64,000 bases of DNA from a virus (IMGVR_UViG_3300049740_002155), one strand, 5' to 3'. Positions 2,507 to 57,562 are shown, counted from the first letter of the stretch. Translations and numbers: made by a program. Notes: generated from the sequence alone by a model not told the origin.

Positions 2507-3246
2507 AAATATCAAAACAACAACTCAAAGAAATTATTCGTGAGGAACTTGCAAGTTTAAATGAGCAATTAACTGATCTACAATTTATCATCAACCAGGT
2601 TTCATTCGATATGAGACGATATAGCAATGAAAAAAAATTCGTTGATCATTTGTCAAAAGAAACCTCGTATGATGCAGATAAACTTAAAAATGTTTTTAAA
2701 GCATATCAAAAGTTAAGTAATACCGAAAAATACAAAATGGAAACACCATATAGTGGTGCGATACTTGCAAAAAAGTTTCTTGCCAAACATGGAATTGTTC
2801 GTGAAGAACTTGCAAGTTTAAACGAAGATCAATACGGAGATGTTTCTTTTTCTCGTAGAAAACTCAAACTTGCGTGTGAAGACTCCGAAAGTATTCTTCA
2901 GTTGTTGGCAAATAAAGCAGAAGATGAGGAACTTCCAAACTGGTGGAAAGATAAAGTAAGCAAAGCAGCCGATTATCTTAATATTGCACGTGATTATCTT
3001 GCAACTGATTCTCATACTGATGCAATCCACGAAGAAACCGAAAAAGAATTTCCGATTTGGGGCATTCCACCAGGGAAAAACTCAGAGGAATTGTTATACA
3101 CAAAAGCACCTTCTCATTCGCAAGCAAAAGTTATTGCAAGAATTCTTCGTGATAAACATGGATGTAAAAAAGTTAGAATTCAAGTATTAGATTTAGCACA
3201 AAATCCTGCGGATATTTTTAACTCTGATAAATTATTTAACAAATAA
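2503..3246 (+). CDS. Putative internal-head polyprotein
   Basis: MKISKQQLKEIIREELASLNE; second REELASLNE at 2800-2826; contains module shared with ORF 29..1228 and a WWKDKVSKAADYL module. Confidence 0.6.
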   Translation: MKISKQQLKEIIREELASLNEQLTDLQFIINQVSFDMRRYSNEKKFVDHLSKETSYDADKLKNVFKAYQKLSNTEKYKMETPYSGAILAKKFLAKHGIVREELASLNEDQYGDVSFSRRKLKLACEDSESILQLLANKAEDEELPNWWKDKVSKAADYLNIARDYLATDSHTDAIHEETEKEFPIWGIPPGKNSEELLYTKAPSHSQAKVIARILRDKHGCKKVRIQVLDLAQNPADIFNSDKLFNK

Positions 3247-3251
3247 ATGTC

Positions 3252-3280
3252 TTGACTTTTTATAATAACTTTGATAGATT
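3252..3280 (+). promoter_or_regulatory. Early sigma70-like promoter (repeat family copy)
   Basis: TTGACT-ttttataataactttga(17)-TAGATT. Confidence 0.7.
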
Positions 3281-3289
3281 ATATAAAGA

Positions 3290-4354
3290 ATGAGGTACAT
3301 GAGAATAGTAAACGAGATAAGATTATCTCAAACGGTGGATGCTAAACACAAAGATTCAATTGAGTTTGTGCAAAAATGGAAACAGGGTCAAAAGATTCCA
3401 AATCCACAATTTCAGAAAATCAAAAGTGATGTATCAAGAGCATTTGATATTGCAACAAACAGCACAAAGTTGAAAGGTGCAAACGAGTTTACCGTTTGGG
3501 GACTACAAAAACAAGACGGAGAAACAGAAGAATACAAATATTCTTTTCCAAATAGTGTTCTTCACGTTTCGGGGTATCTTAAAAGAACTGCAAAGCAACT
3601 TAAAAGAACAATCAAAAGTCCCAAAGCAAGCAAGATTGTAAAAGACGCAATGACTGCGTGTGAACCTTGGGAAAAGATTGCGATTACTTTAAAAGCAATG
3701 AAAAATGATGTTGTTAAACGTCAGATTGGTGCAGGATCAAATAAACCAATGATACCCAAAGGTGCAATCAGCAAGGAAATTGAAGAAGAACTTGAAAAAA
3801 TCGGTAAAGGATTTGAAAAAGAGTTGCAAGAAAACTTTGAAGATTATTATGAAATGATCATTGATCAATATCAAAAAGATGCAAAAAAACACGGAATCAC
3901 AAGCACCTACGATTTATATAAGTCTCAGTCAAATTATCATTTGAATAAAATATTAAGTAGTTTTCTTGATAGCAAGTATGACCACAACGAACGTGGTGGA
4001 TATGCTTACACCCTTAAATCAGATTACAAAAAGATATTAAAAGATACTGCAAAACAAAATGCCAAAGAAGGTGTTGAGAAGTTTGTTTACAAAATGAAAA
4101 TGAAACTTAGTGTGATTGTTGGTGGTCGTGGCATCGGTGTTAATGTTGACGGAAATCATAATCGCAATACAATGTCTTTTGATTTTGAGGACGGAAGTCG
4201 TTTCACGGTTAAAAATGGAATTGTTTTAAGTTATAGTGTTTATGGAAAACCTTTTTATCGTTATCCAACCACTTTTCATGATGTAATTTTACCGAATGGT
4301 GACAAATTAAGAAATCCATCTGAGACAAAAATCAAAAAAGAGTTTGCAAAATAG
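3290..4354 (+). CDS. Conserved phage hypothetical protein
   Basis: 354-aa ORF behind early promoter; C-terminal YRYPTTFHDV.LPNG motif recalled from other phages. Confidence 0.6.
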   Translation: MRYMRIVNEIRLSQTVDAKHKDSIEFVQKWKQGQKIPNPQFQKIKSDVSRAFDIATNSTKLKGANEFTVWGLQKQDGETEEYKYSFPNSVLHVSGYLKRTAKQLKRTIKSPKASKIVKDAMTACEPWEKIAITLKAMKNDVVKRQIGAGSNKPMIPKGAISKEIEEELEKIGKGFEKELQENFEDYYEMIIDQYQKDAKKHGITSTYDLYKSQSNYHLNKILSSFLDSKYDHNERGGYAYTLKSDYKKILKDTAKQNAKEGVEKFVYKMKMKLSVIVGGRGIGVNVDGNHNRNTMSFDFEDGSRFTVKNGIVLSYSVYGKPFYRYPTTFHDVILPNGDKLRNPSETKIKKEFAK

Positions 4355-4389
4355 TCATATTTGTATATATTTAAGGTATTAGATATATC

Positions 4390-6519
4390 ATGAAAACCAT
4401 AGTTTATGTGCTTTTAGGGCTACTTGTGAGCTTGCCGGTGTGGTCTAATGAAACACCGCCGGAAAGAATTAATGCAGAGGAATTGCGTGAAATTTCTCAG
4501 AAAAGAAAAGTTGTTATTATCATCAACAAAGAAGGAAAACAACTTGAAGGAAAGGTTTTAGAATATGACGGTGAGTCTGTGCTATTTCAACGACAGAAAG
4601 ATTTACAATTATTTCGTTTTGATTTAACTGGTTTAGCACAACAATCGCAACGTATGATTAAAGACAATTATATGACTGCGAATTATAATGTGCCAAAATT
4701 ACAAAGACCACTTCAAGAAAATCAAATCAAGAAGTTCGCCGCATATGCAGACAATTTGGTGTTGGAAAAACTTCGTAGTGAAAAACAAAGACCAACCCGT
4801 GATGTAGATGATTATACTTTTATGCGTAGAGCATATCTTAAAATCATTGGTCGTATTCCAAACAAAGCAGAAATTGATGAATTCAAAAAAGAAATGCGTG
4901 GAAACAAACTGAAACTAATCAATAAGTTACTAGATAGTGAAGGTTACATTAATCATCAGTTGAATTATTATAGTGATATTCTTCGTATTCAGAATAAATT
5001 AAATAATACTAATATCAATAGTGGATTTCGTTATCGTGAATGGGTTCGCAATGAAATTCGTAATAATACTCCGTTTGACGAAATGGTACAAAAATTAATT
5101 GCATCAGAAGGTGCTTATTATGAACCAGGAAGTGAACCAATAGGTTTTTATTTGCGTGATCGTGGTATGCCATTAGATAATCTTGCAAACACGGTACAAG
5201 TGTTTTTAGGAACTCGTTTAGAATGTGCTATGTGTCACGATCATCCATTTGATAAATGGACACAAAAGCAGTTTTATGAAATGGCCGCATTTACCGATGG
5301 AGTAAGTCGTGTTCAATATCGTGAGAACTCTAAACTTGTTGGAGACTTCAATCGTATTGTTCGCAACGACAAAACAGAAGATGTCGGAACACTTAATCAA
5401 TATCGCAATTATATTCGTGACATTATGGGTTATGGATTAGATGATAATCTTGGTAAGGGTTCTATAAAACTTACAGATGCGTTTATGGAAGATGACGCAA
5501 AACCAGGAGATACTCTTCTTGCAAAAGCAATATTTGCTCCACCATTGGAAATTGAAAAAACTGACACACTTCCACAAAGTCGCAAACAATTTGCAGAATG
5601 GATTACCTCAGAAGCAAATCCAAGATTTACTACTGTTATTGTAAATCGTTTATGGAAACGAGCATTTGGAATTGGTTTGATTGAACCGGTTGATGATATG
5701 AACGATAACACTCAATCAAGCAATCCTCAGTTACTTGCGTATCTTGAAAAAATTATGGCATCTGTTGATTATGATGTTAAAGAATTTATGCGAGTATTAT
5801 ATAGTATGGACTTGTTTACACGTGATAGTGTTAAAGATGATCACAAAGGAGTAGAAACATTTTACTTTGCAGGACCACCTCTTCAACGAATGAAAGGTGA
5901 GCAAATATGGGATTCACTTGTAACATTGGTATACAACGATATTGATTCACCTGATCGTTTTCCGAGCAATTACGATGAAAAGTATCAAGCAGTTTATGAT
6001 CGTTACAAAGAATATACTGCTCAAGAAATTTATGATGAACTTAAAGAGTATCTTGCTAATACAGAAAAACCAAGTCGCAATCTTGCAGAAGTAGTTCAGC
6101 AATTAAACGAGTCAGAAGGAAGGTACAAATCAAAGCAACTTAAAGACAGAGATTTAATTCGTAGTAGTTATGTAGGTTATCCACCACCTGGTGGACATCT
6201 TATTCGCCAGTTTGGTGGAAGTGACAAAGCACTTATTGAAAACTCAAACTTTGAAGCAACAACACCACAAGTATTGAATATGTTGAATGGTTTCGTGGAA
6301 AAAAGAATTATCAATAATAAGAATGCTGATTTTATGAAGCAGATGGCACAAGAAAATCGTGAAACCGGAAAAATTGAGGACATCTTTATGAGCATTCTTA
6401 ATCGTAAACCAACTTCAACGGAGATGAAATTACTTAAAAAATATATCGATGAACCAAACGGTGCAAAACATATTGCGTGGATTCTTATGAACTCCCACGA
6501 ATTTATTTTCATTCGTTAA
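4390..6519 (+). CDS. DUF1549/DUF1553 (PSCyt2/PSD1) protein with signal peptide, SHD1-like N-domain and CxxCH heme-binding motif
   Basis: DDYTFMRRAYLKIIGRIP; VFLGTRLECAMCHDHPFDKW; VNRLWKRAFGIGLIEPVDD; WILMNSHEF; N-terminal hydrophobic signal. Confidence 0.9.
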   Translation: MKTIVYVLLGLLVSLPVWSNETPPERINAEELREISQKRKVVIIINKEGKQLEGKVLEYDGESVLFQRQKDLQLFRFDLTGLAQQSQRMIKDNYMTANYNVPKLQRPLQENQIKKFAAYADNLVLEKLRSEKQRPTRDVDDYTFMRRAYLKIIGRIPNKAEIDEFKKEMRGNKLKLINKLLDSEGYINHQLNYYSDILRIQNKLNNTNINSGFRYREWVRNEIRNNTPFDEMVQKLIASEGAYYEPGSEPIGFYLRDRGMPLDNLANTVQVFLGTRLECAMCHDHPFDKWTQKQFYEMAAFTDGVSRVQYRENSKLVGDFNRIVRNDKTEDVGTLNQYRNYIRDIMGYGLDDNLGKGSIKLTDAFMEDDAKPGDTLLAKAIFAPPLEIEKTDTLPQSRKQFAEWITSEANPRFTTVIVNRLWKRAFGIGLIEPVDDMNDNTQSSNPQLLAYLEKIMASVDYDVKEFMRVLYSMDLFTRDSVKDDHKGVETFYFAGPPLQRMKGEQIWDSLVTLVYNDIDSPDRFPSNYDEKYQAVYDRYKEYTAQEIYDELKEYLANTEKPSRNLAEVVQQLNESEGRYKSKQLKDRDLIRSSYVGYPPPGGHLIRQFGGSDKALIENSNFEATTPQVLNMLNGFVEKRIINNKNADFMKQMAQENRETGKIEDIFMSILNRKPTSTEMKLLKKYIDEPNGAKHIAWILMNSHEFIFIR

Positions 6520-6547
6520 TTTTAAACTAGAAAAGGAAAAAAATAAA

Positions 6548-7831
6548 ATGGAAAACCTATTAAAAGACGAACTCTCAAGAAGAGGATTCCTCACAGGCAT
6601 GGCAAAATCTTGTCTTGGTGTTAGTGCAATCTTAGGAGCAGAAGATTTGCTTGCGTATGAAATACCTGGTAAAACTGCATCTGCTCGTCACGTTATCTTT
6701 TTGTATATGGCAGGTGGAATGACTCATATTGATACATTTGATCCTAAACCTGAGAACAAAGATGTTATGGGTGAAACAACTGCTATCAACACATCTGCTG
6801 ATGGAATTCAGTTGGGTAATTGGTTACCAAATACTGCAAAGCAAATGCACAATGCGGCTTTGATTCGTAGTTTGACAAGTAATCAAGGAGCACACCAACA
6901 AGCAAACTATTTGCTTCATACTTCTTATCAACGCAGAGGAACTATCAAGCATCCTACATTGGGAAGTTGGGTAAGTCGTTTATCAGGTAAATTGAATCGC
7001 ACTCTTCCTGCTCACGTTCGTATCAACGGTGGAAGTGATGTATTGGGTGCTGGATTCTTAGAAAGCAAACACGGTCCTCTTCCATTGGGTAATCCAAGTA
7101 GTGGAATTCAGAATGTTAAGGCAGCCGGTTATCTTGAGCAATCATTATACACACAACGTCTTCATACTGCACAAGAATTTAACAAAATGTTTCTGAATGA
7201 ATACTCTCAAAAACAAGTACGTGCGTACACAGACTTATATAACGATGCAGTAAAGTTGATGAGCAGTAAAGATTTGGAAGCATTTGATCTTACAAAAGAA
7301 ACCGAAGAAACCCGTGAACTTTACGGAGAAAATAACTTTGGACAAGGATGTTTGCTTGCTCGTCGTTTAGTTGAAACTGGTGTTCGTTTTGTTGAAGTTC
7401 AACTTGGTGGTTGGGATATGCACAACGGAGTATTTGACGGAATGGCAACCCGTGGTGCTACACTTGACCAAGGTTTATCAGCATTGCTTTCTGATCTCGA
7501 AAGAACAGGTAAAATTGATGACACTATGGTTGTTGTTGCAAGTGAGTTCGGAAGAACACCTGAAGTTAAAGCAGGTCGTATCGGACGAGACCATCACCCA
7601 ACTGCTTTTAGTGCAATGCTTGCAGGTGGAGGAATCAAGGGTGGAACCGTTTATGGTAAGAGTGACGAACGAGCACACTATGTAGAAGAAGAAGGTTCAT
7701 CTGTAGAAGACCTCAATGCAACGGTTGCTCATGCTCTTGGTCTTAAACTTGAAGAAATACACTACTCACCAAGTGGACGTCCATTCAAGGTAGCACACGA
7801 TGGTAAAGTGCTTACCAAGTTGTTAGTGTAA
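6548..7831 (+). CDS. DUF1501 protein (sulfatase/alkaline-phosphatase-like), Tat-exported
   Basis: SRRGFL twin-arginine signal; GGMTHIDTFDPKP, GWDMH, SEFGRTP, RDHHP motifs; directly follows DUF1549/1553 as in PVC bacteria. Confidence 0.92.
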   Translation: MENLLKDELSRRGFLTGMAKSCLGVSAILGAEDLLAYEIPGKTASARHVIFLYMAGGMTHIDTFDPKPENKDVMGETTAINTSADGIQLGNWLPNTAKQMHNAALIRSLTSNQGAHQQANYLLHTSYQRRGTIKHPTLGSWVSRLSGKLNRTLPAHVRINGGSDVLGAGFLESKHGPLPLGNPSSGIQNVKAAGYLEQSLYTQRLHTAQEFNKMFLNEYSQKQVRAYTDLYNDAVKLMSSKDLEAFDLTKETEETRELYGENNFGQGCLLARRLVETGVRFVEVQLGGWDMHNGVFDGMATRGATLDQGLSALLSDLERTGKIDDTMVVVASEFGRTPEVKAGRIGRDHHPTAFSAMLAGGGIKGGTVYGKSDERAHYVEEEGSSVEDLNATVAHALGLKLEEIHYSPSGRPFKVAHDGKVLTKLLV

Positions 7832-7868
7832 TTTAAGTTAATTACTTACAGTTTAGTTAGTTTAGTGC

Positions 7869-7919
7869 TTGACTTTTTATAAAAAGTTTGGTAGTATTCT
7901 TGTATTGAGAGTGAGAAAG
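7869..7919 (+). promoter_or_regulatory. Early promoter cassette (full form with CTTGTATTGAGAGTGAGAAA leader)
   Basis: TTGACT-17-TAGTAT; spacer contains a perfect 16-bp palindrome ACTTTTTATAAAAAGT (7872-7887). Confidence 0.75.
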
Positions 7920-8565: not shown

Positions 8566-8802
8566 ATGACACAAGCAGAAATTAGAAACAAAATCAAAGA
8601 AATCGTTAACGAAAATACTCGTTATGCTGATCCCAAGGATTCTATTAACACAAGTAAGTTTCACGGATGGGAAGCAAAGAAGTTTGCCGGAAAAGAAGGT
8701 TACTGCATTCAGTCAGCAGAAGAAGCACTTGATGATATCATACACGACTTGAAGTCTTTGCAAAGAGAAATTGCTACTTCACCATCACTTACAACAAGTT
8801 AA
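8566..8802 (+). CDS. Hypothetical protein
   Basis: Start moved to ATG 8566 (MTQAEIRNK). Confidence 0.55.
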   Translation: MTQAEIRNKIKEIVNENTRYADPKDSINTSKFHGWEAKKFAGKEGYCIQSAEEALDDIIHDLKSLQREIATSPSLTTS

Positions 8803-8809
8803 CAATATT

Positions 8810-9049
8810 ATGAGTATAAATCAGCATATAGAAGAATGTGCAACGGAAAGTGGAGTTGACCTTGAGGTTAGCAATTCCAACGAAGAAAACATTGAATACA
8901 AAAGTCACATCATTGAGGTATGGTACGATGAGAATTCCAGTTCACCTCTTGCATGGAATGCTTTTATCAAAGGATTTGGAACTTATTCAGAGTATGGACG
9001 TGATCGGGTTGTTCACGTCGCAAAACGAAAAATTGACGGACTATGCTAA
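8810..9049 (+). CDS. Hypothetical protein
   Basis: Start moved to ATG 8810 (MSINQH). Confidence 0.5.
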   Translation: MSINQHIEECATESGVDLEVSNSNEENIEYKSHIIEVWYDENSSSPLAWNAFIKGFGTYSEYGRDRVVHVAKRKIDGLC

Positions 9050-9202
9050 ATCTACTTAAAAACATTATTGGTATAGCAATTACTTTATACGGAACATTAC
9101 TGATTATCAATTTAGTGTATTGTATTATCGGAGAACTTGAATGGAATAGATTTTTTTATTTGTAATTGAGTCTAACTTACATCTATTCAATATATATTGA
9201 GT

Positions 9203-10474
9203 ATGGAAAAGTTAGACAAGGCAGATAAAGATATGCTAATAGAATGTGTATCTGGTGGTGTAAATAATCTTGAGTTTTTGTCTAAAAAATCATCAACAAG
9301 AATTAATGTGTATAAGATTCTTGCGAATGATCGTCCAAGTGCAAGAAGAAAAGTTCAAGCAAGACTTAGAAAAGAAAAAATACGATTCACCGAAAAGAAA
9401 ACTAATTTATCAAGTGAATCAATCACAGAATTCAATCGTGGACAACTTATAGTACGGATTTTGTATAAACCACTACGGGGTGGTATGACTGAAACTACAT
9501 TAAATTCTACGATTACTGAACTTGTGCCATGTTTAATGTTCCATAACAACATCAATACAAGTGATGTCAATAAACTACAAACCGAGTTATTTAAATTAAA
9601 ACATTCATCTCAAAAGTGCTATGTAGATGTCGCAGACTCGGTAAACGGTTTAAAATTTATTGAAAGATTTGAAACATCTTCAAAATACAATGAAAAAATG
9701 AAGAACGCAATGGCAGTATATAAGTTTTTATGTGAAACAAACAAAAAGAAACCCATAAAAACAGTCTATTGGACATATCGCAGAAAACCAGCAGGAGTTC
9801 CAAGTAATTCCCCTGCTGACATTGTAATTTGTTTTCAGGACAGAGAACTTTTGGGAGTGAGTCTTAAAGCAGGAACTAGTTCAAGTAAAGAACCTTTGCT
9901 TAACACTTATATAAATCCTATATTTGATTATTTTGATTCAAGTAAAACTTCTGCATTACGAAAGAAACTTTATACATCAGTATACAATAAAATAGAAAAT
10001 ATACCTTCAATAGAAAACTACGATAAGTCGCAAAAAAAGCAAACACTTGAACTTTTAGATTTACTTGAAAGAACCGACTTAAAAAGATACAATGACTTGT
10101 ACGATGATTCTCTTAAAATAATACGAGACAATCTTGTAAAAACTCTTGTAAGTGATAAAAAGAAGTTTTTAGATTACTTGAAGTATGCAGTCTTAAAAGA
10201 AAGTAATGTTCCTGTGATAATAATAAAAGCATCTGGTTCATCGTTTGAAGAAAAAAAAGATTCCAATAAACTTAAAAAACTTCTTCCACAAATAGTTTCA
10301 ATAGATGCAAAGATCACAAGTTCATCTAAACAAAATTTTTGTATACTATTAAAAGGGAAAACGGGAATTATTGGTAAAACGAATTGGTCCGTGAGAAGTA
10401 ATAAGGTGGGAGTCGACCATAAACTTGGCCAATTTTTTAATATGGCAGTCAAATACAATGGTTTAGATTATTAA
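9203..10474 (+). CDS. Putative PD-(D/E)xK endonuclease (restriction/homing-like)
   Basis: NSPADIV...GVSLKAG catalytic-type motif; ATG at 9203. Confidence 0.55.
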   Translation: MEKLDKADKDMLIECVSGGVNNLEFLSKKSSTRINVYKILANDRPSARRKVQARLRKEKIRFTEKKTNLSSESITEFNRGQLIVRILYKPLRGGMTETTLNSTITELVPCLMFHNNINTSDVNKLQTELFKLKHSSQKCYVDVADSVNGLKFIERFETSSKYNEKMKNAMAVYKFLCETNKKKPIKTVYWTYRRKPAGVPSNSPADIVICFQDRELLGVSLKAGTSSSKEPLLNTYINPIFDYFDSSKTSALRKKLYTSVYNKIENIPSIENYDKSQKKQTLELLDLLERTDLKRYNDLYDDSLKIIRDNLVKTLVSDKKKFLDYLKYAVLKESNVPVIIIKASGSSFEEKKDSNKLKKLLPQIVSIDAKITSSSKQNFCILLKGKTGIIGKTNWSVRSNKVGVDHKLGQFFNMAVKYNGLDY

Positions 10475-10866
10475 CCATTTTGTTTCCATTCTTCACCTTC
10501 ATCATCTCCAAAGTCCTCGATGTCTTCAACTTCATCAAAATCCGTATAGGCATCAAGGTATTTACTTTCATCAGATGTAAAGTGATTTATATCATGCAAA
10601 AACAAATGACCATCAAAAGTAGGATATTTTTCACGAAACTTCTTTTCAAACTCAACAAACTTTTCAAGTGTCAAAGTTTCATAAGGAAAATCAATACAGG
10701 CCTCAATGTCTTCTCCAAATGTACCACCTGCAGAACCTTTAAAAGATTCAACAAAATCTAAAATTTCATCTACACGGGCATCAATTTCAGCATCATTTAT
10801 ACCAACGAAACCATATTCTTTACCACGGATGGAGATACCGTGTTTTATGTCAAAAAGTCCTTCCAT
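10471..10866 (-). CDS. Acidic hypothetical protein
   Basis: Start at MEGLF (10866), preceded on - strand by ATATTTAT; acidic tail. Confidence 0.6.
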   Translation of the reverse strand: MEGLFDIKHGISIRGKEYGFVGINDAEIDARVDEILDFVESFKGSAGGTFGEDIEACIDFPYETLTLEKFVEFEKKFREKYPTFDGHLFLHDINHFTSDESKYLDAYTDFDEVEDIEDFGDDEGEEWKQNG

Positions 10867-10919
10867 GTTAAACATAAATATCAAAAAAAAATAGAAACAT
10901 ATATATATTCGCATTTTGC

Positions 10920-10948
10920 TTGACTTTTTATAGTTTTTTTAATAGTAT
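10920..10948 (+). promoter_or_regulatory. Early promoter (likely leaderless mRNA)
   Basis: TTGACT-17-TAGTAT, ATG 35 nt from -35 start. Confidence 0.7.
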
Positions 10949-10954
10949 TTAAAA

Positions 10955-11611
10955 ATGAGAGAATCTGTTATAGAAAAATATAATAAAGGTGTAATTCTGC
11001 ATTTTCATAAAAGTATGCATGATAATTGCAAGTGGGACAAAAACAATAGCACTTGGAATGTGCTTAAAAAGAGATATGATAATGGTCAACGTGACTCGCA
11101 AATGCAAAAACTTTATGATGCTGAGTATTCTTTAATTCCATGTTCTCCCAAAGATAATCTTAGTTTTGATGAATTGATTTACAAAATAAACGAGGTGGTC
11201 AATCATACTTGGTTTAGAAAAAAGTTCGGAAGACTTTTCTCGGACACAGTATTGAAAGTGGAAAATGCAAGTTCTCGTCAGAATATGGCATACGCATTTG
11301 GTACAGATTTGCTATCATTTCCACCTCACTTTTGTAATGTACCAATCATTTTACACGAATTAACACATATTATAGTAGATAGATTACATTTTGTGGTAAA
11401 CATGAACAAAAGTTATACTACTCACGGAAGAATGTTTGCTTTTATTTATCTTGAACTCGTTAAGAAATTTATGGGTGATCGTAGTTACACTATTCTTAAA
11501 ACTGGATACAAAAACTATAATGTTAAGTATCGTAATAGAATTCCACAAACTTCAGCAAAAAAGAAAATACTAAGAGAAAGATTAAAAGTTATAAAAAGTC
11601 AAAATGTATAA
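10955..11611 (+). CDS. HExxH zinc metallohydrolase (Rv0185/SprT-like)
   Basis: QRDSQMQKLYDAE, ILHELTH and HGRMFAFIYLELV motifs. Confidence 0.7.
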   Translation: MRESVIEKYNKGVILHFHKSMHDNCKWDKNNSTWNVLKKRYDNGQRDSQMQKLYDAEYSLIPCSPKDNLSFDELIYKINEVVNHTWFRKKFGRLFSDTVLKVENASSRQNMAYAFGTDLLSFPPHFCNVPIILHELTHIIVDRLHFVVNMNKSYTTHGRMFAFIYLELVKKFMGDRSYTILKTGYKNYNVKYRNRIPQTSAKKKILRERLKVIKSQNV

Positions 11612-12437: not shown

Positions 12438-14192
12438 ATGCTTATTCTTCCAAAAAGTGTTTTGTCGTGCGTAGATAATTACGATGATCGTATTCGTGCT
12501 TTGTGCGAGCATTTTGTAAATGAAGTAACATGGAACGAAACTTACGAAAATCGTTTGTGCGAAGAATTTGATATTATTCAGCAAAAGAACTTTATTCAAT
12601 GCTTTGAACAAGTAACTTATATTGTGAGTTATATGCGTTCGCAGAATATTCCGCACGTTTTGCGTGGAAGTGGTGCGTGTAGTTTAGTTTGTTACTTGCT
12701 TGGTATTACTCATATTGATCCTGTGAAAGAGAATATGGCATTAGCACGATTTATGAACTTTCATAGAAACGATCAACCTGATATTGATTTGGATGTTCCA
12801 CATTATTATCGTGATGACATATTAAAGCATTTATATGAAAAGTATCCGAATCGTGTTGCAAGAATCAGCAACGATGTCAAGTATTCCGAGAAAACTGCGT
12901 TGCGAGAAGTTATGCGTAAATACGGATTTCGTAAACAACTTCCACGGAATTTTAAAGTGGAGCATTATTTTCTTGATCCAACTGATGTTGCCAAGATTTA
13001 TGCTGAAGCAGATAAATTAATCGGTGAACATAATCATTGGTCTTTGCATTGTGGTGGAATTATTGTGTATGATGATAAAGTGCCTGAAAAGGATATTCTC
13101 AAAGACAATCAAATAAAACTCACAAAATACGATGTAGAAGAACAAAATTTAATTAAAATAGATTTGCTTTGCAATCGTGGATTAAGTCAGTTGTGGGATA
13201 TAAATAAAAAATTGGTACATGAATATCCTGTTAACGATGAAAATGTAGAAGAGTTATTCAGAAACGGAGATGTTATCGGATTAACACAAGCAGAATCACG
13301 AACGATGCGTAAATGCGTTATGGCAATTCAACCTAAAAGTTACAAAGACCTTGCATTGTGTCTTGCTATAATTCGTCCTGCGGCTGCTGACAACAAACGC
13401 AAAAAGAATTACTTTGAAGATTATACATCAGGTAATAAAAATCATATGTTGATATATGACGATGATAGCATTTATTATATTGCAGAAGTTCTTGGATGTG
13501 ATTATGGAACTGCTGATGCTTATCGTAGAGCATTCAAACGAAACGAAACGACACGCATAGAAGATTTCCAAAATACTTACGACAACAAAATGCTGAATAG
13601 TACATCTTCTACATTCAACGACAAAACACAATACTCTCAGTTGCGTGAGTTGGACAAGTATTCGTTTTGCAAAGGTCATGCTCTTGCGTATGGTCAACTT
13701 GTATGGGCATTAGCATACAACAAGCATTATCACGCAGAAAAATTTTGGGAAAGCACTCTTAAAAACAATCAAAGCAGTTATCGTAAATGGGTTCATATTC
13801 GTGAAGCACAGATTGCAGGTGTATTTGTTCCAAACAAAAACCATTTTATGAGTAGCAAAGATCAATTTCTTAAACAAGGATGGTGGACAGGTGAAGAGTT
13901 TTTACCAGGATGCTTTCTTGAACCATACGAAGATGAACCGAATGTTTATATGTTTCGTGGTATAATTGCGAATAGTCGTACTTTACGAAAGTTCGGCAAA
14001 ACAACACGTATGATTACTATTGGATACGACAACGGAAAATTTTTGGACTTAATTGTTGAAGGAGATGTTTGGTGTGGTAATCATACAATTATTCAGGGTG
14101 TCGGGGAAATAACAACGCATTGTAATTGCGAAAGTATGAAAGTAATCAAGATGTGGAAAACTTGGTTTGACAAAAAGCATTATTCTTTCTAA
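12438..14192 (+). CDS. dnaE: Family C DNA polymerase (DnaE-like), truncated: lacks PHP domain
   Basis: LRGSGACSLVCYLLGITHIDP, QPDIDLD, HCGGII, KIDLL, YSFCKGHALAY; only 584 aa. Confidence 0.85.
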   Translation: MLILPKSVLSCVDNYDDRIRALCEHFVNEVTWNETYENRLCEEFDIIQQKNFIQCFEQVTYIVSYMRSQNIPHVLRGSGACSLVCYLLGITHIDPVKENMALARFMNFHRNDQPDIDLDVPHYYRDDILKHLYEKYPNRVARISNDVKYSEKTALREVMRKYGFRKQLPRNFKVEHYFLDPTDVAKIYAEADKLIGEHNHWSLHCGGIIVYDDKVPEKDILKDNQIKLTKYDVEEQNLIKIDLLCNRGLSQLWDINKKLVHEYPVNDENVEELFRNGDVIGLTQAESRTMRKCVMAIQPKSYKDLALCLAIIRPAAADNKRKKNYFEDYTSGNKNHMLIYDDDSIYYIAEVLGCDYGTADAYRRAFKRNETTRIEDFQNTYDNKMLNSTSSTFNDKTQYSQLRELDKYSFCKGHALAYGQLVWALAYNKHYHAEKFWESTLKNNQSSYRKWVHIREAQIAGVFVPNKNHFMSSKDQFLKQGWWTGEEFLPGCFLEPYEDEPNVYMFRGIIANSRTLRKFGKTTRMITIGYDNGKFLDLIVEGDVWCGNHTIIQGVGEITTHCNCESMKVIKMWKTWFDKKHYSF

Positions 14193-42234: not shown

Positions 42235-42666
42235 ATGACAACAGGAACTATTAAAACAAATGCTGGCTCAATGAAGATTGAGTTTTATGATAACGATGCA
42301 CCTAACACAGTGAAGAACTTTTGTGATTTGGCAAATAAAGGATTTTATGAAGGATTGAATTTTCATAGAGTGATACCTGGATTTGTGGCACAGGGTGGTT
42401 GTCCAGACGGAACTGGTGCAGGTGGACCGGGTTATACAATTGATTGTGAAACGCAAGGTGGTAATCAATATCACGATAAAGGAGTATTGAGCATGGCACA
42501 CGCAGGACCTAACACAGGAGGTTCTCAATTCTTTTTAGTCCACACTCGTCAAGCAACGCAACATCTTGATGGTGGTCACACCTGCTTTGGTAAGGTTACA
42601 GTGGGTTTAGAAGTTATTGATCAAATTCGTCAAGGTGATACTTTTAGTGTAACCATAGACGAATAA
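42235..42666 (+). CDS. ppiB: Cyclophilin-type peptidyl-prolyl isomerase
   Basis: FHRVIPGFVAQGG, SMAHAG..TGGSQFF, HTCFGKV. Confidence 0.95.
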   Translation: MTTGTIKTNAGSMKIEFYDNDAPNTVKNFCDLANKGFYEGLNFHRVIPGFVAQGGCPDGTGAGGPGYTIDCETQGGNQYHDKGVLSMAHAGPNTGGSQFFLVHTRQATQHLDGGHTCFGKVTVGLEVIDQIRQGDTFSVTIDE

Positions 42667-47017: not shown

Positions 47018-48436
47018 TTATTTTTGTGGGGTGTCCGCTGAGTATTCGGAGTTCACCCCCTTTTTTGTGTCTATTTGCTGACCTTGCTTTCCCCACTTTT
47101 TCTGAAGATACTTACGTTCTTCTTTCCAATCTTTAAAAGGTTTTCCACGCATCGCAAGCAATTCGTCGAGACTAACATCGTTTTTAGGATTACCGTGTTT
47201 TATAGGTTCAGGTAAATCTGCATACTTTTTCATTGAATTGAATAATTCTGTGAAGTCTTTATCGTCTACATTACCAATCAAACAATCAGTAAGCAATCCA
47301 CGAAGTTTTTCATTTTGTTTTACAACATCTGCGAAACTGAAATTTTCATCGTAAAACGCATAAACAATTTTTCGCATAATTTCTATGGAGTTGTTCATTT
47401 GATCGGAATAATTTTGAAATGAAGATGATGAAAAATTTTTGGAAGAACATAATATTGAATCTATATCATCTGCCAAAAGACTTCCACTTTTTAATGCAAG
47501 AAACACTCCACTTGAAAACACAGGATCAAGAAATCCAAAAGCATCTCCTCCAAGCACCAATCCATTTTCAGCACTAAATCGATTACGATACGAGTATTCA
47601 CCGGTTACACGATACTCACCAATTTGAGTAGCATCTTTAAGATGATCCTGAATCCAAGCATTGTTTTTAATTTCACGATCAAAGATTTCAGAATGATCAC
47701 GGGTTGTTCCATTGAAAAGATATTTGTTTTCTGCTACGATACCAACACTTACTTTATTGTTTTTAAGTGGAATATACCAAAACCATCCTTTGTTGGGAAG
47801 ATACGCAATGGTAGTTGCTCCTTCATTTAAACCAGGATCACGTTTAGCATTTTCATAGTATGTCCACATCGCAATCTTTTTTAATTTAGGATCACGTTCC
47901 ATCCAACGATTTTTCAAACTTGCAAAGCAATCACGACCTGACGCATCTACAACAACATCAGCAGATACAGATTGTTTACCAAATTGCTGACTATCAATTT
48001 CAATGCCAATCACCTTATTATTTTCCTTGATAAGATTCGTTGCTTTGGTTGATTGCAAAACATTTGCTCCGTTGTCAATCGCACGATTCAAAATCATTTC
48101 ATCAAACTCACTTCGTTCAATTTGCCAAGTTGTTGATGATGGATGATCAAAGTGTTGAAAGAAATAAAAGGGTTGTGATCCTTCTCCGTTTTCTTTTACG
48201 AACTGAACACAATACTTTTTAGGATTTGCACTTTGCATTAAAGTATCTACAAGTTTAAGTCGTTCCAACGGAAAATAACAAAAAGGCATCAACGACTCAC
48301 CAACATGGTATCGTGGGAATTGCTCTTTTTCAACAATCAATACATTGTGATTATTTTCAGCAAGTAACGCACCTGTGGTTGATCCACACGGTCCTGCTCC
48401 AACTATTGCAACATCAAACTTTTGTGCGAAATTCAT
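47018..48436 (-). CDS. Flavin-dependent halogenase-like FAD oxidoreductase
   Basis: GAGPCG (GxGxxG), PRYHVGESL, GWFWYIPL (WxWxIP), GDAFGFLDPVFSSGV. Confidence 0.85.
   Translation of the reverse strand: MNFAQKFDVAIVGAGPCGSTTGALLAENNHNVLIVEKEQFPRYHVGESLMPFCYFPLERLKLVDTLMQSANPKKYCVQFVKENGEGSQPFYFFQHFDHPSSTTWQIERSEFDEMILNRAIDNGANVLQSTKATNLIKENNKVIGIEIDSQQFGKQSVSADVVVDASGRDCFASLKNRWMERDPKLKKIAMWTYYENAKRDPGLNEGATTIAYLPNKGWFWYIPLKNNKVSVGIVAENKYLFNGTTRDHSEIFDREIKNNAWIQDHLKDATQIGEYRVTGEYSYRNRFSAENGLVLGGDAFGFLDPVFSSGVFLALKSGSLLADDIDSILCSSKNFSSSSFQNYSDQMNNSIEIMRKIVYAFYDENFSFADVVKQNEKLRGLLTDCLIGNVDDKDFTELFNSMKKYADLPEPIKHGNPKNDVSLDELLAMRGKPFKDWKEERKYLQKKWGKQGQQIDTKKGVNSEYSADTPQK
47028..47066 (+). terminator. 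Possible terminator for + strand genes, overlapping the halogenase 3' end
   Basis: GGGGTG...CACCCC stem with T6 tract. Confidence 0.45.
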
Positions 48437-52272: not shown

Positions 52273-53001
52273 ATGATTGTCGTAGACTCACATAAAAACC
52301 ACTCAATCAAAATTGCGAAAAGCATTGCAGAGGAAATTCGTCTTAGACAAAGATTTGATGAAAATATTGTTCTTGGTCTTGCTACTGGGTCAACACCGAT
52401 ATTATTATACAATGAATTGGTTCGTCTTCATATAGAGGAAAATTTATCATTTAAAAATGTTTTAACATTTAACTTGGATGAATATTGTGGATTGTGTACT
52501 GAAGATGATAACTCTTATTATCATTTTATGCAAAAGTATTTATTCAATCATATTGATATTCCAAATGAAAATACTTTTATTCCAAGTGGTCAAGTAGAAC
52601 CATTATTTGAAAGAGATTATTGCGAAGGTTATGAGCAAACTATAAAAGATTTGGGTGGAATAGATATACAAATTTTAGGAATTGGTAGAAGTGGACATAT
52701 TGGATTTAATGAACCAGGAAGTGATGTCAACTCTATCACACGGATGGTAAAGTTGCATGATATTACAAGAAGTGATGCTTCGGAAGATTTTAATGGACTT
52801 GAAAATACTCCAACTCATGCCATTACAATGGGTATGCAAACCATTATGAATGCAAGGAAAATATTCTTTATGGCATTTGGTGAGTCAAAAAAAGAAATTA
52901 CACAAAAAGCATTTATGGGTGAAATCACAAATGATATACCTGCAAGTCATTTACAAAAACATAAACACACAACGATCTGCTTAGATTTTAATATAAGATA
53001 A
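52273..53001 (+). CDS. nagB: Glucosamine-6-phosphate deaminase
   Basis: VLGLATGSTP, TFNLDEYCG, DIQILGIGRSGHIGFNEPG, AITMGM, PASHLQKH. Confidence 0.95.
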   Translation: MIVVDSHKNHSIKIAKSIAEEIRLRQRFDENIVLGLATGSTPILLYNELVRLHIEENLSFKNVLTFNLDEYCGLCTEDDNSYYHFMQKYLFNHIDIPNENTFIPSGQVEPLFERDYCEGYEQTIKDLGGIDIQILGIGRSGHIGFNEPGSDVNSITRMVKLHDITRSDASEDFNGLENTPTHAITMGMQTIMNARKIFFMAFGESKKEITQKAFMGEITNDIPASHLQKHKHTTICLDFNIR

Positions 53002-56627: not shown

Positions 56628-57071
56628 ATGTACGATGATATTGTAATATGTGAGATTTTACACGAAGACCCTGATGAAGAGGAGGGTTGCAATCCACATC
56701 AAATCATAGTTGGAAACTCAAGCACCGAAGGTATACTTGTTACAATGTTATTCAAGGAGGACGATAGAAAGTCTGCGATTTCACCAAGATTTCGTGATCT
56801 TGGCATTGATATTTTTGCGGAAGTAATAGATAGTGATAAAACAGAGTATCAAGATAAATATGACATACAAACAGGAGTTGAATTTACAATTACAAATAAA
56901 AATGAAAAGTACAAGATGCTAATTGGAAGCAACGGAGAGCATTTTCACTATTTTACAAATATTCCTGCGATTAACAATACAACTGATTTTGGTAATACTA
57001 TATTTTTAAGTTTTCCACATACAGTTGAGGGATTTACCTATAAAGATTCAAACTACAAAACTTTTCAATGA
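56628..57071 (+). CDS. Hypothetical protein
   Basis: In-operon ORF. Confidence 0.55.
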   Translation: MYDDIVICEILHEDPDEEEGCNPHQIIVGNSSTEGILVTMLFKEDDRKSAISPRFRDLGIDIFAEVIDSDKTEYQDKYDIQTGVEFTITNKNEKYKMLIGSNGEHFHYFTNIPAINNTTDFGNTIFLSFPHTVEGFTYKDSNYKTFQ

Positions 57072-57562
57072 ACTTACCAAAATATTCACTAATAGCTGCT
57101 ATGGACAATAATCGTATTATTGGACATAAGAACAAAATACCTTGGAAAGCAAAAGGAGAACAAGCATTATTTAAACGCATTACATTAAACTCGGTTGTGA
57201 TAATGGGACGAAATACTTTTGAGTCGTTACCAAATGGAGCATTATCAGAACGATACAATGCGGTTTTAAGTAGAGATCCATATTTTGAAGCACTTGGATG
57301 TTTTAAATTTTCAAGTTTTGAAAAAGCACTTGTGAGTATGCACGAAGAATTTCCTACTTGCGAAATATTTGTTATTGGAGGTGCTTCATTATATGAACAA
57401 ACTATTGAAAATGCTAATGAGTTGCATATTACTCGCATTGAAAGAAGTTATGAGGGTGATGCGTATTTTCCAAAATACGATAACGACAAATTTAATTTAA
57501 AAAATATTGAATGGTTTGATACTAATATGCGTTATATCTATTATCACTATATACGCAAATGA
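57068..57562 (+). CDS. folA: Dihydrofolate reductase (DfrA-like GEQ motif)
   Basis: IGHKNKIPWKAKGEQALFKRIT, IMGRNTFESL, VIGGASLY, EGDAYFP. Confidence 0.95.
   Translation: MNLPKYSLIAAMDNNRIIGHKNKIPWKAKGEQALFKRITLNSVVIMGRNTFESLPNGALSERYNAVLSRDPYFEALGCFKFSSFEKALVSMHEEFPTCEIFVIGGASLYEQTIENANELHITRIERSYEGDAYFPKYDNDKFNLKNIEWFDTNMRYIYYHYIRK

Follow-up and report, generated by a model that had tools for sequence, protein, structure and literature searches.

The DUF1501 module of PVC bacteria and its counterpart in a phage

DUF1501 and PSCyt/PSD1 proteins belong to the gene families that have expanded most in Planctomycetota and Verrucomicrobiota, Rhodopirellula baltica having ∼40 copies; their definition dates from 2004–2012, and no function has been assigned to them since. 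In Planctomycetes, Verrucomicrobia and Lentisphaerae, DUF1501 forms a “conserved genetic module” with PSCyt1, PSCyt2 and PSD1, for which electron transport has been proposed (Kamneva et al., 2012, PMC3542564). “Group” architectures of the same families have also been described (He et al., 2017, PMC5615132), and there the PSCyt genes are linked with sulfatases and carbohydrate-binding modules. The first-pass annotation of the sequence studied here regarded this pair as expanded in PVC bacteria and without known function, as both papers report. It also regarded the module as undescribed in phages, and a literature search found no published account of it in a phage or as an auxiliary metabolic gene.

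The DNA analyzed here (hereafter the window) is a stretch of 64,000 nucleotides from the virus IMGVR_UViG_3300049740_002155. Two intact open reading frames, on the same + strand and 28 nt apart, are found exactly where the first-pass annotation had placed two adjacent genes, with the motifs that it had listed, and PSCyt2, PSD1 and DUF1501 are all matched by Pfam. In the cellular loci, the PSCyt2-PSD1 gene is likewise directly upstream of the DUF1501 gene in ∼70 of 80 cases. The features of the locus, and of a third gene located outside the coordinates of the pair, are as follows:

4343–4371, + strand: weak match to a sigma-70-like promoter (TTGCAA-16-TATATT), 19 nt ahead of the start of gene 1; a consensus match only, in AT-rich DNA with 36 such matches found against 24 expected
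4390–6519, + strand: gene 1, exported SHD1-like/PSCyt2 (DUF1549)/PSD1 (DUF1553) protein, 709 amino acids, from Pfam
4390–4446, + strand: gene 1 Sec-type signal peptide, residues 1–19, by inspection and from low pLDDT at the N-terminus
4504–4677, + strand: gene 1 SHD1-like small beta-barrel, residues 39–96, from structure match and hhalign
4750–5301, + strand: gene 1 PSCyt2/DUF1549 domain (PF07583), residues 121–304, Pfam 2.6e-40, 139 bits
5224–5238, + strand: gene 1 haem-c attachment motif CAMCH, residues 279–283, from sequence motif
5581–6444, + strand: gene 1 PSD1/DUF1553 domain (PF07587), residues 398–685, Pfam 3.7e-37, 128.5 bits
6520–6547, + strand: spacer of 28 nt with an AAGGA ribosome-binding site and no terminator, from sequence
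6548–7831, + strand: gene 2, Tat-signal DUF1501 protein with alkaline-phosphatase-superfamily fold, 427 amino acids
6575–6592, + strand: gene 2 twin-arginine motif SRRGFL, residues 10–15, from sequence motif
7106–7261, + strand: gene 2 helical insert, residues 187–238, predicted PSD1 clamp, from secondary structure and complex model
57559–59250, + strand: gene 3, exported SHD1-like/2x PSCyt1/LRR protein, 563 amino acids

The pair is resident in phage genomes

The GC content is ∼0.33 and flat along the whole window. The GC3 of genes 1 and 2 (0.23 and 0.25) is that of the neighboring phage genes (0.22–0.28), and is higher in the nearest cellular orthologues (0.31–0.35). The flanking genes match phrog_2496, a phage-only family, as well as phage DnaE, ligase and tail-fibre families, and four large fibre/adhesin genes are also present in the window; the phage-like composition and setting noted in the first-pass annotation are therefore both confirmed. 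The nearest DnaE belongs to an uncultured 484-kb phage with a T4 Gp23-type capsid gene. A 566-kb long-read contig is collinear with positions 2793–7833 (93.8%), as are two other assemblies. The pair had been implied to be rare in phages, but it occurs together on at least 12 IMG/VR viral contigs, including a 222-kb phage that is 100% complete according to CheckV and carries Gp23 and terminase, and identity reaches 70% or more in over 100 metagenomic protein clusters.

It could be argued that host DNA was mis-assembled onto phage DNA, or that the pair is recent neutral cargo, since a GenBank protein labeled “Flavobacteriaceae bacterium TMED42” is 93% identical, and the 3′ junction varies between strains. 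However, the TMED42 match is on a 12.9-kb contig within a bin, most simply a mis-binned phage contig, and at the 3′ junction the strains differ cleanly by the presence or absence of a single HtrL_YibB gene between unchanged flanks. The 566-kb long-read contig and other assemblies show the same 5′ junction and the same two flanks, with no sign of a chimeric join. The phage-like GC3 and the divergence from the closest cellular copy, which is just 56% identical, also contradict this explanation, as does selection: dN/dS is 0.04–0.07 for gene 1 and 0.02–0.05 for gene 2 (0.02–0.07 over the two) between well-diverged phage copies, differing by up to 30–50%, 14 of 14 other phage copies are intact, and nothing in them indicates that selection was relaxed or shifted. 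I therefore consider an artefact or passenger extremely improbable, and the evidence strongly supports a genuine phage-resident copy of the PVC periplasmic PSCyt2-PSD1 and DUF1501 module. Contigs from RNA libraries of four studies, 95–98% identical, cover both genes, and two bridge the intergenic gap, which hints at transcription of the pair, with the caveat that such libraries may contain DNA and that the runs were chosen for holding the query.

A three-gene cassette of Opitutae origin

The 22 viral DUF1501 sequences form a single clade (SH-aLRT 100), nested among sequences of Verrucomicrobiota and Planctomycetota. Its sister is a pair of marine Opitutia sequences (SH-aLRT 96), from Opitutia bacterium SI034_bin59 (G008) and an uncultured Puniceicoccaceae (G009), so that the derivation from PVC bacteria is upheld. 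Both of these genomes possess a contiguous cluster, PSCyt2/PSD1 – DUF1501 – SHD1/2xPSCyt1/LRR, whose proteins are 40–41%, 55–56% and 45–49% identical to those of phage genes 1, 2 and 3, respectively. Gene 3 is orthologous to the third member of this cluster, and because it is present in the same window (57559–59250), the module consists of three parts and not of the two proteins initially described. In the phage, gene 3 has DHFR as its neighbor, and this context recurs in an independent assembly. IMG/VR phages of 180–222 kb possess the pair without gene 3, suggesting that it is perhaps dispensable.

Taken together, it is strongly supported that the donor-type cluster has three genes, all of which are in the examined phage, that the cassette was captured once by a phage lineage from a marine Opitutae-like verrucomicrobium, and that a wide range of large marine phages came to carry it afterwards, by spread or by inheritance, with strong purifying selection acting on it. 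Phage-to-phage transfer is likely, rather than one vertical history, since DnaE is just 23–25% identical between viruses whose DUF1501 proteins are 67–72% identical. Marine Opitutae are the nearest cellular relatives of four separate phage genes, which supports, from sequence relationships, the PVC host that the first-pass annotation had proposed. An S1 sulfatase gene is located 2 kb from the Opitutia cluster, a slight hint of a catabolic context for the module.

Haem-motif proteins and a possible role in electron transfer

The N-terminus of gene 1 (MKTIVYVLLGLLVSLPVWS) resembles a Sec signal by inspection. In residues 1–125, Pfam SHD1 (PF03983) gives no match even at E 10, and the sole weak Pfam match of the N-terminal part is to Hfq (0.008). 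The top PDB match for the model of residues 39–96 is the SHD1 domain of Sla1 (2hbp; Z 7.5, rmsd 2.2, over 57/66 residues). Three cellular orthologues (L057, L062 and L077) pass the Pfam SHD1 threshold (25.7–36.9 bits), and in hhalign profile comparison the gene 1 N-terminus matches SHD1-bearing orthologue N-termini with E 1.4e-5, and the domain of the Opitutia orthologue with E 5.5e-14 (98%). Both the predicted fold and the homology to profile-matching domains thus support an SHD1-like assignment. For residues 105–709, the model has no PDB match at Z ≥ 5.5 (pLDDT is < 50 at residues 282–286), and at this cut-off the PSCyt2-PSD1 body shows no likeness to known cytochromes. The CxxCH motif is present in 42/42 homologues, with C279, C282 and H283 invariant, and the two cysteines of CAMCH are the only ones in the protein. 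No membrane anchor or lipobox is present in the gene 1 or gene 2 sequences.

In gene 3, the haem motifs CNDCH (residue 160) and CIDCH (residue 282) contain all four cysteines. The PSCyt1 match scores 63 bits, with sub-threshold matches to the class-I cytochrome c families Cytochrome_CBB3 and PccH, and the N-terminus matches SHD1-bearing N-termini with an hhalign E of 2.3e-7.

These motifs argue for a periplasmic oxidoreductase, with which the phage would raise energy supply. DUF1501 would oxidize or reduce a substrate, and the haem of PSCyt2 together with the two of PSCyt1 in gene 3 would relay electrons between it and the respiratory chain of the host, in either direction. Tat export, which suggests cofactor loading in the cytoplasm, is in line with this, as is the earlier proposal of electron transport (Kamneva et al., 2012, PMC3542564). 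On the other hand, the model of the PSCyt2-PSD1 body matches no known cytochrome at Z ≥ 5.5, gene 3 is missing from the smaller phages, and the DUF1501 fold, described below, is that of a hydrolase or transferase. I consider such an electron-transfer role unlikely.

Gene 2 has an alkaline-phosphatase-superfamily fold

The Pfam match of gene 2 to DUF1501 (PF07394) covers profile positions 1–390 of 390 (1.5e-114, 383.6 bits, for a cut-off of 27). A hydrophobic stretch comes after SRRGFL, and at least 90% of 50 homologues retain R11 and R12; the Tat signal is judged by this motif. The gene 2 model is most similar to ENPP6 (VIA-align Z 20.3) and PafA (Z 19.9), followed by sulfatases (Z 18–19, rmsd 3.4–3.8 over ∼250 aligned residues, Foldseek E 5.5e-9) and by the envelope-modifying transferases LtaS, EptA and YejM (Z 16–17). 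Residues H116, D290, H292, E333, R336, R347, H349 and R411 are invariant, and position 59 is Ser or Thr in 50/50 sequences. E333 aligns with the metal-binding Asp of sulfatases, in the region of their “DHG” motif.

An assignment as an S1 formylglycine-dependent sulfatase was considered, as the core fold fits, but the C/S-x-P-x-R (CxPxR) motif is absent: [CS]x[PA]xR occurs nowhere in the gene 2 protein, and in just 3 of 50 homologues, at unaligned places. No redox-cofactor domain was detected in gene 2 either. By its fold and conserved residues, DUF1501 looks more like a hydrolase or transferase of anionic esters than like a redox enzyme, at variance with the redox remodeling suggested in the first-pass annotation. 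Because no family member has a known substrate, cofactor or activity, the chemistry is read from fold and conserved residues.

The proteins of genes 1 and 2 are predicted to form a complex, as its modeling yielded an ipSAE of 0.87, 0.88 and 0.87 in three runs and 0.00 for the best control, a mark reached by 58/80 solved complexes against 2/110 mismatched pairs. At least 95% of the contacts are common to the three runs, and the pLDDT of the partners is at least 87. The DUF1501 helical cap is placed on the PSD1 C-terminus, where the gene 1 interface encompasses residues 480–500, 601–638 and 678–707, including the invariant PSD1 residues R500, G609, Q627, N633 and F707. Since PSD1 has no solved relative, the score is not the memory of a known complex. 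The model thus supports a heterodimer joined through this cap and the C-terminal part of PSD1.

A proposed mechanism

The explanation that I favor, with a probability of about 0.6, is that of a phage-resident, Opitutae-derived module forming a heterodimer and acting as an auxiliary gene set for ester processing. Gene 1 would be exported via Sec, with haem presumably attached at the single CxxCH, and DUF1501 via Tat, already folded and metal-loaded; the DUF1501 cap and the PSD1 C-terminal region would then associate. DUF1501 would be the catalytic subunit, a metalloenzyme of the alkaline-phosphatase superfamily with Ser/Thr-59 as putative nucleophile and D62/D290/H292/E333/H349 as candidate metal ligands, these being assigned by sequence position and not by geometry. 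Several invariant arginines may bind the anionic group of the substrate, which would be a sulfate or phosphate ester, while the haem-motif partners, with their SHD1 and LRR domains, could position, regulate or electronically link the enzyme. The phage copy may in this way keep or raise host periplasmic processing of organic esters, plausibly from algal sulfated glycans, during a long jumbo-phage infection. The module is host-derived, found in bona fide viral genomes and under purifying selection, and I infer that it is an auxiliary metabolic gene set.

It is also conceivable that the module was repurposed to act on the host envelope, for example on glycans or lipids of the surface whose phospho or sulfo groups it would remove or transfer, so as to block superinfection or aid release. 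Every part of the module is exported, LtaS, EptA and YejM belong to the same superfamily, SHD1 and LRR are protein-binding modules, and the four large fibre/adhesin genes share the window. However, architecture, partner and invariant residues are the same as in the cellular modules, which are present in many copies per genome and in catabolic neighborhoods (PMC5615132), no relaxation or shift of selection is seen, and genes 1 and 2 are devoid of membrane anchor and lipobox. The envelope chemistry or superinfection exclusion raised in the first-pass annotation is not directly borne out here, and I regard it as improbable.

A bolder reading is that the three phage proteins represent a new class of periplasmic enzyme complex, coupling cleavage of a sulfate or phosphate ester to electron transfer. 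In it, the catalytic subunit of alkaline-phosphatase fold would clamp onto a haem-c partner whose fold has no solved relative, the dihaem PSCyt1 protein would serve this enzyme-haem complex, and its users would be jumbo phages of marine Opitutae, redirecting their host’s harvest of algal organic matter. This is speculative, and I would count it as rather unlikely. If true, the phage set would be the minimal, single-copy version from which the function of the whole PVC family could be solved.

Irrespective of the exact chemistry, with its single enzyme, PSD1 partner and PSCyt1 protein the phage set is a minimal and well-defined target for biochemistry, for which there are already a heterodimer model, confident and open to testing, and a few candidate catalytic residues. 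Very few verrucomicrobial phages are known; through the module and three other Opitutae-like genes, a widespread family of jumbo phages from the sea, with contigs of up to 566 kb, is tied to marine Verrucomicrobia, bacteria with an important part in the breakdown of algal sulfated polysaccharides. If it is indeed an auxiliary metabolic gene set, it would be a new item in the viral reprogramming of carbon and of sulfur/phosphorus turnover in the ocean.

Comparison with known systems

With the alkaline-phosphatase superfamily (NPP/ENPP phosphodiesterases, PafA and S1 sulfatases), DUF1501 shares the core fold, over ∼245–280 aligned residues, and acidic and His residues at the ends of the same strands. 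In contrast, identity is just 10–18%, and DUF1501 has its own signature, GGM[ST]HxDTFDPKP, and its own 80-residue helical cap, the predicted partner-binding surface. No superfamily member is known to work with a haem-motif partner, and why a hydrolase would need such partners is left unexplained by the ester-processing reading.

Marine phages carry auxiliary metabolic genes for nutrient acquisition, such as pstS, phoA and phoH of cyanophages. Like these, the module is host-derived, under purifying selection and outside the replication machinery, but it differs from them in being multi-subunit and exported.

The Opitutia cluster and the phage set have the same domain order in all three proteins, including the N-terminal SHD1-like domain. 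However, gene 1 is 842 amino acids long in Opitutia, with a large PSD1 insert, against 709 in the phage, the GC content is 0.40–0.44 against 0.34–0.41, and the contiguous Opitutia genes are split in the phage, gene 3 being 50 kb from the pair.

Finally, the phage pair and the PVC module (Kamneva et al., 2012) consist of the same Pfam families in the same gene order, the DUF1501 protein having a Tat motif and its partner a signal peptide and an invariant CxxCH, and the phage genes are orthologues nested inside the PVC family. What differs is the carrier, phages, with phage composition; the position of PSCyt1, on a separate protein moved 50 kb away; and the copy number, a single one per phage genome versus dozens in PVC genomes. 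That this single viral copy is under strong purifying selection shows that one module by itself confers a fitness benefit during infection.

The gene pair and a third gene of the same type

The first-pass annotation described a two-protein module, and its two adjacent open reading frames are indeed intact on the + strand, but the donor-type cluster comprises three genes, the third of which was located when the remainder of the window was searched against Pfam. The three genes are:

4390–6519, + strand: gene 1, SHD1-like/PSCyt2 (DUF1549)/PSD1 (DUF1553) protein, 709 aa
6548–7831, + strand: gene 2, DUF1501 protein, 427 aa
57559–59250: gene 3, PVC-type (Planctomycetes/Verrucomicrobia group) gene, SHD1-like/PSCyt1/LRR protein, 563 aa

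Gene 1 matches the Pfam families PSCyt2 (2.6e-40) and PSD1 (3.7e-37), and the proposed haem c motif, CAMCH, lies at residues 279–283. It contains the only two cysteines of the protein, and CxxCH is kept in all 42 aligned homologues. The SHD1-like domain claimed for the N-terminus receives no Pfam SHD1 call in the phage protein. However, the AlphaFold model (pLDDT 84) predicts a small beta-barrel for residues 39–96, whose best match in the PDB is the SHD1 domain of Sla1 (Z 7.5, rmsd 2.2, 57 residues), several cellular orthologues possess a Pfam-significant SHD1 at the equivalent position, and the phage N-termini align with those of SHD1-bearing orthologues in a profile comparison (E 1.4e-5). 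The name SHD1-like is therefore retained. The PSCyt2-PSD1 body is predicted to be mainly helical and has no solved relative; since a Foldseek search of gene 1 against the PDB gave no match at E 1e-3 or better, it may represent a new fold, or merely an unsolved one. NCBIfam holds no model for either protein of the pair.

The gene 2 protein matches DUF1501 across the full profile (1.5e-114), and opens with SRRGFL, after which comes a hydrophobic stretch, as expected for the Tat signal attributed to it. The spacer between genes 1 and 2 is 28 nt, with an AAGGA ribosome-binding site and no terminator-like element. A promoter and terminator scan was uninformative because the DNA is AT-rich.

The gene 3 protein has a signal peptide followed by an SHD1-like domain, which hhalign matches to the SHD1-bearing N-termini at E 2.3e-7, by two PSCyt1 domains with one CxxCH each, and by an LRR tail; its four cysteines all belong to these two motifs. 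In many PVC proteins PSCyt1 is fused to PSCyt2-PSD1 (PMC3542564), which ties gene 3 functionally to the pair, although it now lies 50 kb away. The stop of a phage DHFR gene (57068–57562) overlaps the start of gene 3 by 4 nt, so that the captured cytochrome gene sits inside a nucleotide-metabolism operon, and the same context is repeated in an independent assembly. A pattern scan of IMG/VR turned up no gene 3, nor was it seen in genomes G001–G004, and the smaller IMG/VR phages lack it.

Residence in phages

GC content is flat across the window (∼0.33), and the GC3 of genes 1 and 2 (0.23 and 0.25) equals that of the neighbouring phage genes, in agreement with the phage-like codon use noted earlier. 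One neighbour of the pair belongs to phrog_2496, which has GenBank relatives in 81 T4-like cyanophages only; a second encodes a DnaE-type polymerase, matched best in GenBank (43%) by an uncultured phage of 484 kb whose capsid gene is of the T4 Gp23 type, and further neighbours are a phage-type ligase and fibre-like giants.

The junctions at 4354–4390 and 7831–7869 are reproduced independently, save for one gene on the 3′ side. A 566-kb ENA contig (L094), assembled from long reads and polished with Pilon, is collinear with window positions 2793–7833 at 93.8%, as are two more assemblies. At the 3′ end, those strains possess one additional HtrL_YibB gene, placed after DUF1501 and before the same 81-aa open reading frame, a clean strain-level insertion/deletion. 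This 260-aa gene follows DUF1501 directly (L094 11291–12073; L095 3752–4534), and is absent from the window strain (7832–7868).

Both genes also occur on 12 IMG/VR contigs, at 47–51% (gene 1) and 67–72% (gene 2) identity. One of them, a genome of 222 kb with a completeness rating of 100%, carries Gp23 and a large terminase, and in it the pair is surrounded by primase, PD-(D/E)XK nuclease, NUDIX, Hsp20, ribonucleotide reductase and DnaE genes; Gp23 and Terminase_6C were seen in one of four IMG/VR records, which is uninformative as to the other three. The DUF1501 protein also has more than 100 metagenomic protein clusters at 70% identity or above. The 14 other phage copies extracted are each intact, with pairwise dN/dS among phage copies of 0.04–0.07 for gene 1 and 0.02–0.05 for gene 2. 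That the pair is an artefact or neutral cargo, for which the differing 3′ junction might be cited, would have to be squared with these values and with the independent assemblies, and is very improbable.

Contigs from RNA libraries of four metatranscriptome studies, 95–98% identical, cover both genes, and two span the intergenic gap. This hints that the pair is transcribed, with the caveat that the runs were picked for holding the query and that RNA libraries can contain DNA.

Some loci differ in arrangement. IMG/VR 3300023084_000012 (L009) has tandem DUF1501 genes (8709–9986 and 10001–11272; 425 and 423 aa) with one PSCyt2/PSD1 gene upstream. A DUF5824-family gene of variable length (192–502 aa) adjoins the pair in 10 of 14 phage loci (L002–L011), between the genes, just after them or upstream, which suggests that it is mobile or often rearranged; it is possibly accessory. 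The DnaE-like open reading frame of the window (12438–14192, 584 aa) is only 23–25% identical to the 858–864-aa DnaE of the pair-bearing IMG/VR phages (L002–L011). Set against the 67–72% identity of DUF1501 in phages sharing the pair, this indicates that the module may have moved between distantly related phage lineages.

A marine Opitutia donor and a probable host

When 185,579 species-representative genomes were scanned by pattern, the nearest cellular DUF1501 genes, at 45–55% identity, were overwhelmingly those of Verrucomicrobiota, with some of Planctomycetota. Of 80 such loci, ∼70 have a PSCyt2/PSD1 gene just upstream in the same orientation, and the GC content of the loci is 0.40–0.67. 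In the maximum-likelihood tree, the 22 viral and metagenomic DUF1501 sequences all fall into one clade (SH-aLRT 100) inside PVC diversity. A first tree put this clade weakly beside an SHD1-bearing Verrucomicrobiia/Planctomycetota group, a placement superseded once Opitutia paralogues were added.

Among cellular pairs, those of two marine Opitutia genomes, Opitutia bacterium SI034_bin59 (G008) and an uncultured Puniceicoccaceae (G009), match the phage pair best (40–41% and 55–56% identity). Their gene 1 N-terminal domain is evidently homologous to that of the phage (98% probability, E 5.5e-14), and their DUF1501 sequences, when added to the tree, are sister to the viral clade (SH-aLRT 96). A 201-genome sample of the class of SI034_bin59 contained nothing nearer than that genome itself (56%). 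Among five genomes searched, full-length matches to gene 3 (47–49%) occur in these two only, at ∼40% GC, and in both directly 3′ of the PSCyt2/PSD1–DUF1501 pair. From the sister placement and this contiguity it follows that the donor-type cluster has three genes, all present in the phage. In a database-wide search with gene 3, a phage group at 76–96% identity is followed by a fall to 50% or less, and the named proteins of this lower group are all from Opitutae, Opitutales or Verrucomicrobiota.

Other genes of the window bear on the host, the last three below being further host-like cargo:

47018–48436, − strand: FAD-dependent tryptophan-halogenase-like gene, 472 aa
41217–42227: polyprenyl synthase
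42235–42666: cyclophilin-type PPIase
52273–53001: NagB-like glucosamine-6-phosphate deaminase

The halogenase-like gene is the nearest phage-to-cell match seen in the window: its identity to genes of the two Opitutia genomes is 67–68%, and the other genomes tested have a 26%-identical counterpart or none. In Opitutia the gene is found on long cellular contigs (94 and 144 kb), with the other DUF1501 pair of these genomes. The 566-kb relative has a second Trp_halogenase-family gene near the pair (L094 15821–16945). The polyprenyl synthase is closest to SI034_bin59 (42%) and the NagB-like protein to Oceaniferula (53%), giving mixed host signals only, and as the window contains no tRNA genes, none came from these.

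The module genes and the halogenase-like gene thus point to a marine Opitutae host, in line with the PVC host suggested at first pass. The support is moderate, as few genomes were directly compared and shared genes speak of exchange, not infection, but this host is rather probable, and the donor clade is probably the host clade too.

A 93%-identical DUF1501 protein (GenBank cluster P0022) bears the label 'Flavobacteriaceae bacterium TMED42'. Its contig, of 12.9 kb, probably belongs to a phage and was put into a bacterial MAG by binning. A Flavobacteriaceae host, as this label and the low GC content would suggest, was rejected as the main candidate because only domain-level matches came from the one Bacteroidota genome tested, and because the named relatives of gene 3 are all from Opitutae or Verrucomicrobiota.

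Candidate chemistry and predicted complex

The DUF1501 model (pLDDT 86) has a predicted core of the alkaline-phosphatase superfamily, and resembles NPP-type phosphodiesterases and PafA (Z 19.4–20.3) as closely as it does S1 sulfatases (Z 18–19). A search of PDB sequences by HMM yielded nothing beyond marginal matches (E 0.002 or weaker), to the C-terminus of sulfatases. The protein is not classed as a sulfatase, since the C/S-x-P-x-R motif is absent from it.

Across 50 homologues, including paralogues of 30% identity, H116, D290, H292, E333, R336, R347, H349 and R411 are invariant, D62 and D65 almost so, and position 59, part of the signature GGM[ST]HxDTFDPKP, is always Ser or Thr. The conservation of the putative metal ligands reported earlier is borne out, D290, H292, E333 and H349 being among the invariant residues, and E333 aligns with a metal-binding Asp of sulfatases. 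A metal-dependent hydrolase or transferase that attacks an anionic ester via a Ser/Thr nucleophile would fit this pattern, a reading drawn from sequence positions.

Structure prediction of the complex used residues 105–709 of gene 1 and 42–427 of gene 2, in three runs with three controls. The heterodimer is confidently predicted (ipSAE 0.87, 0.88 and 0.87, against 0.00 for the best control), this being the model's confidence rather than a measurement; 58 of 80 solved complexes attained that ipSAE mark, as did 2 of 110 mismatched pairs. At least 95% of contacts are common to the three runs, with partner pLDDT at least 87. On the PSD1 side the predicted interface involves the C-terminal part (residues 480–500, 601–638 and 678–707), including the invariant R500, G609, Q627, N633 and F707, and on the DUF1501 side an 80-residue helical cap (residues 187–238). 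As no similar complex has been solved, the prediction is not recall.

Proposed role and comparison with known systems

The overall picture that I favor, with a probability of about 0.6, is that of a phage-borne auxiliary metabolic module. It would keep a host-type periplasmic processing step going through a long jumbo-phage infection, with sulfated or phosphorylated compounds from algal glycans as plausible substrates. Ester-hydrolase chemistry is a tentative part of this picture; an S1 sulfatase gene 2 kb from the Opitutia cluster, and a published link of PSCyt genes to sulfatases and to carbohydrate-binding modules (PMC5615132), lend it weak context. The CxxCH motifs of genes 1 and 3 might instead suggest a redox enzyme, which, set against the hydrolase/transferase pattern of DUF1501, seems unlikely. 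Envelope modification or superinfection exclusion, also raised at first pass for this exported pair, is more doubtful still.

The first-pass observation is thus confirmed, and its interpretation supported in part. The main additions are the three-gene module, its marine Opitutia donor, the wide spread among ocean phages, strong selection and the confident heterodimer model. The module also appears to be undescribed in phages: full-text literature searches combining the family names and Pfam accessions with phage or virus returned no report of it in a virus, and tblastn of the gene 2 protein (P0002) against 50,697 GenBank phage records found none with a DUF1501 gene, so that, at that sensitivity, the module is absent from cultured and deposited phages.

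The phage module offers a tractable way into a long-standing puzzle of PVC biology. The DUF1501/PSCyt/PSD1 module itself was already described in 2012 by comparative genomics, and the phage genes are orthologous members of it with the same architecture. It is therefore not a new kind of system, but an unreported and widespread viral auxiliary module.
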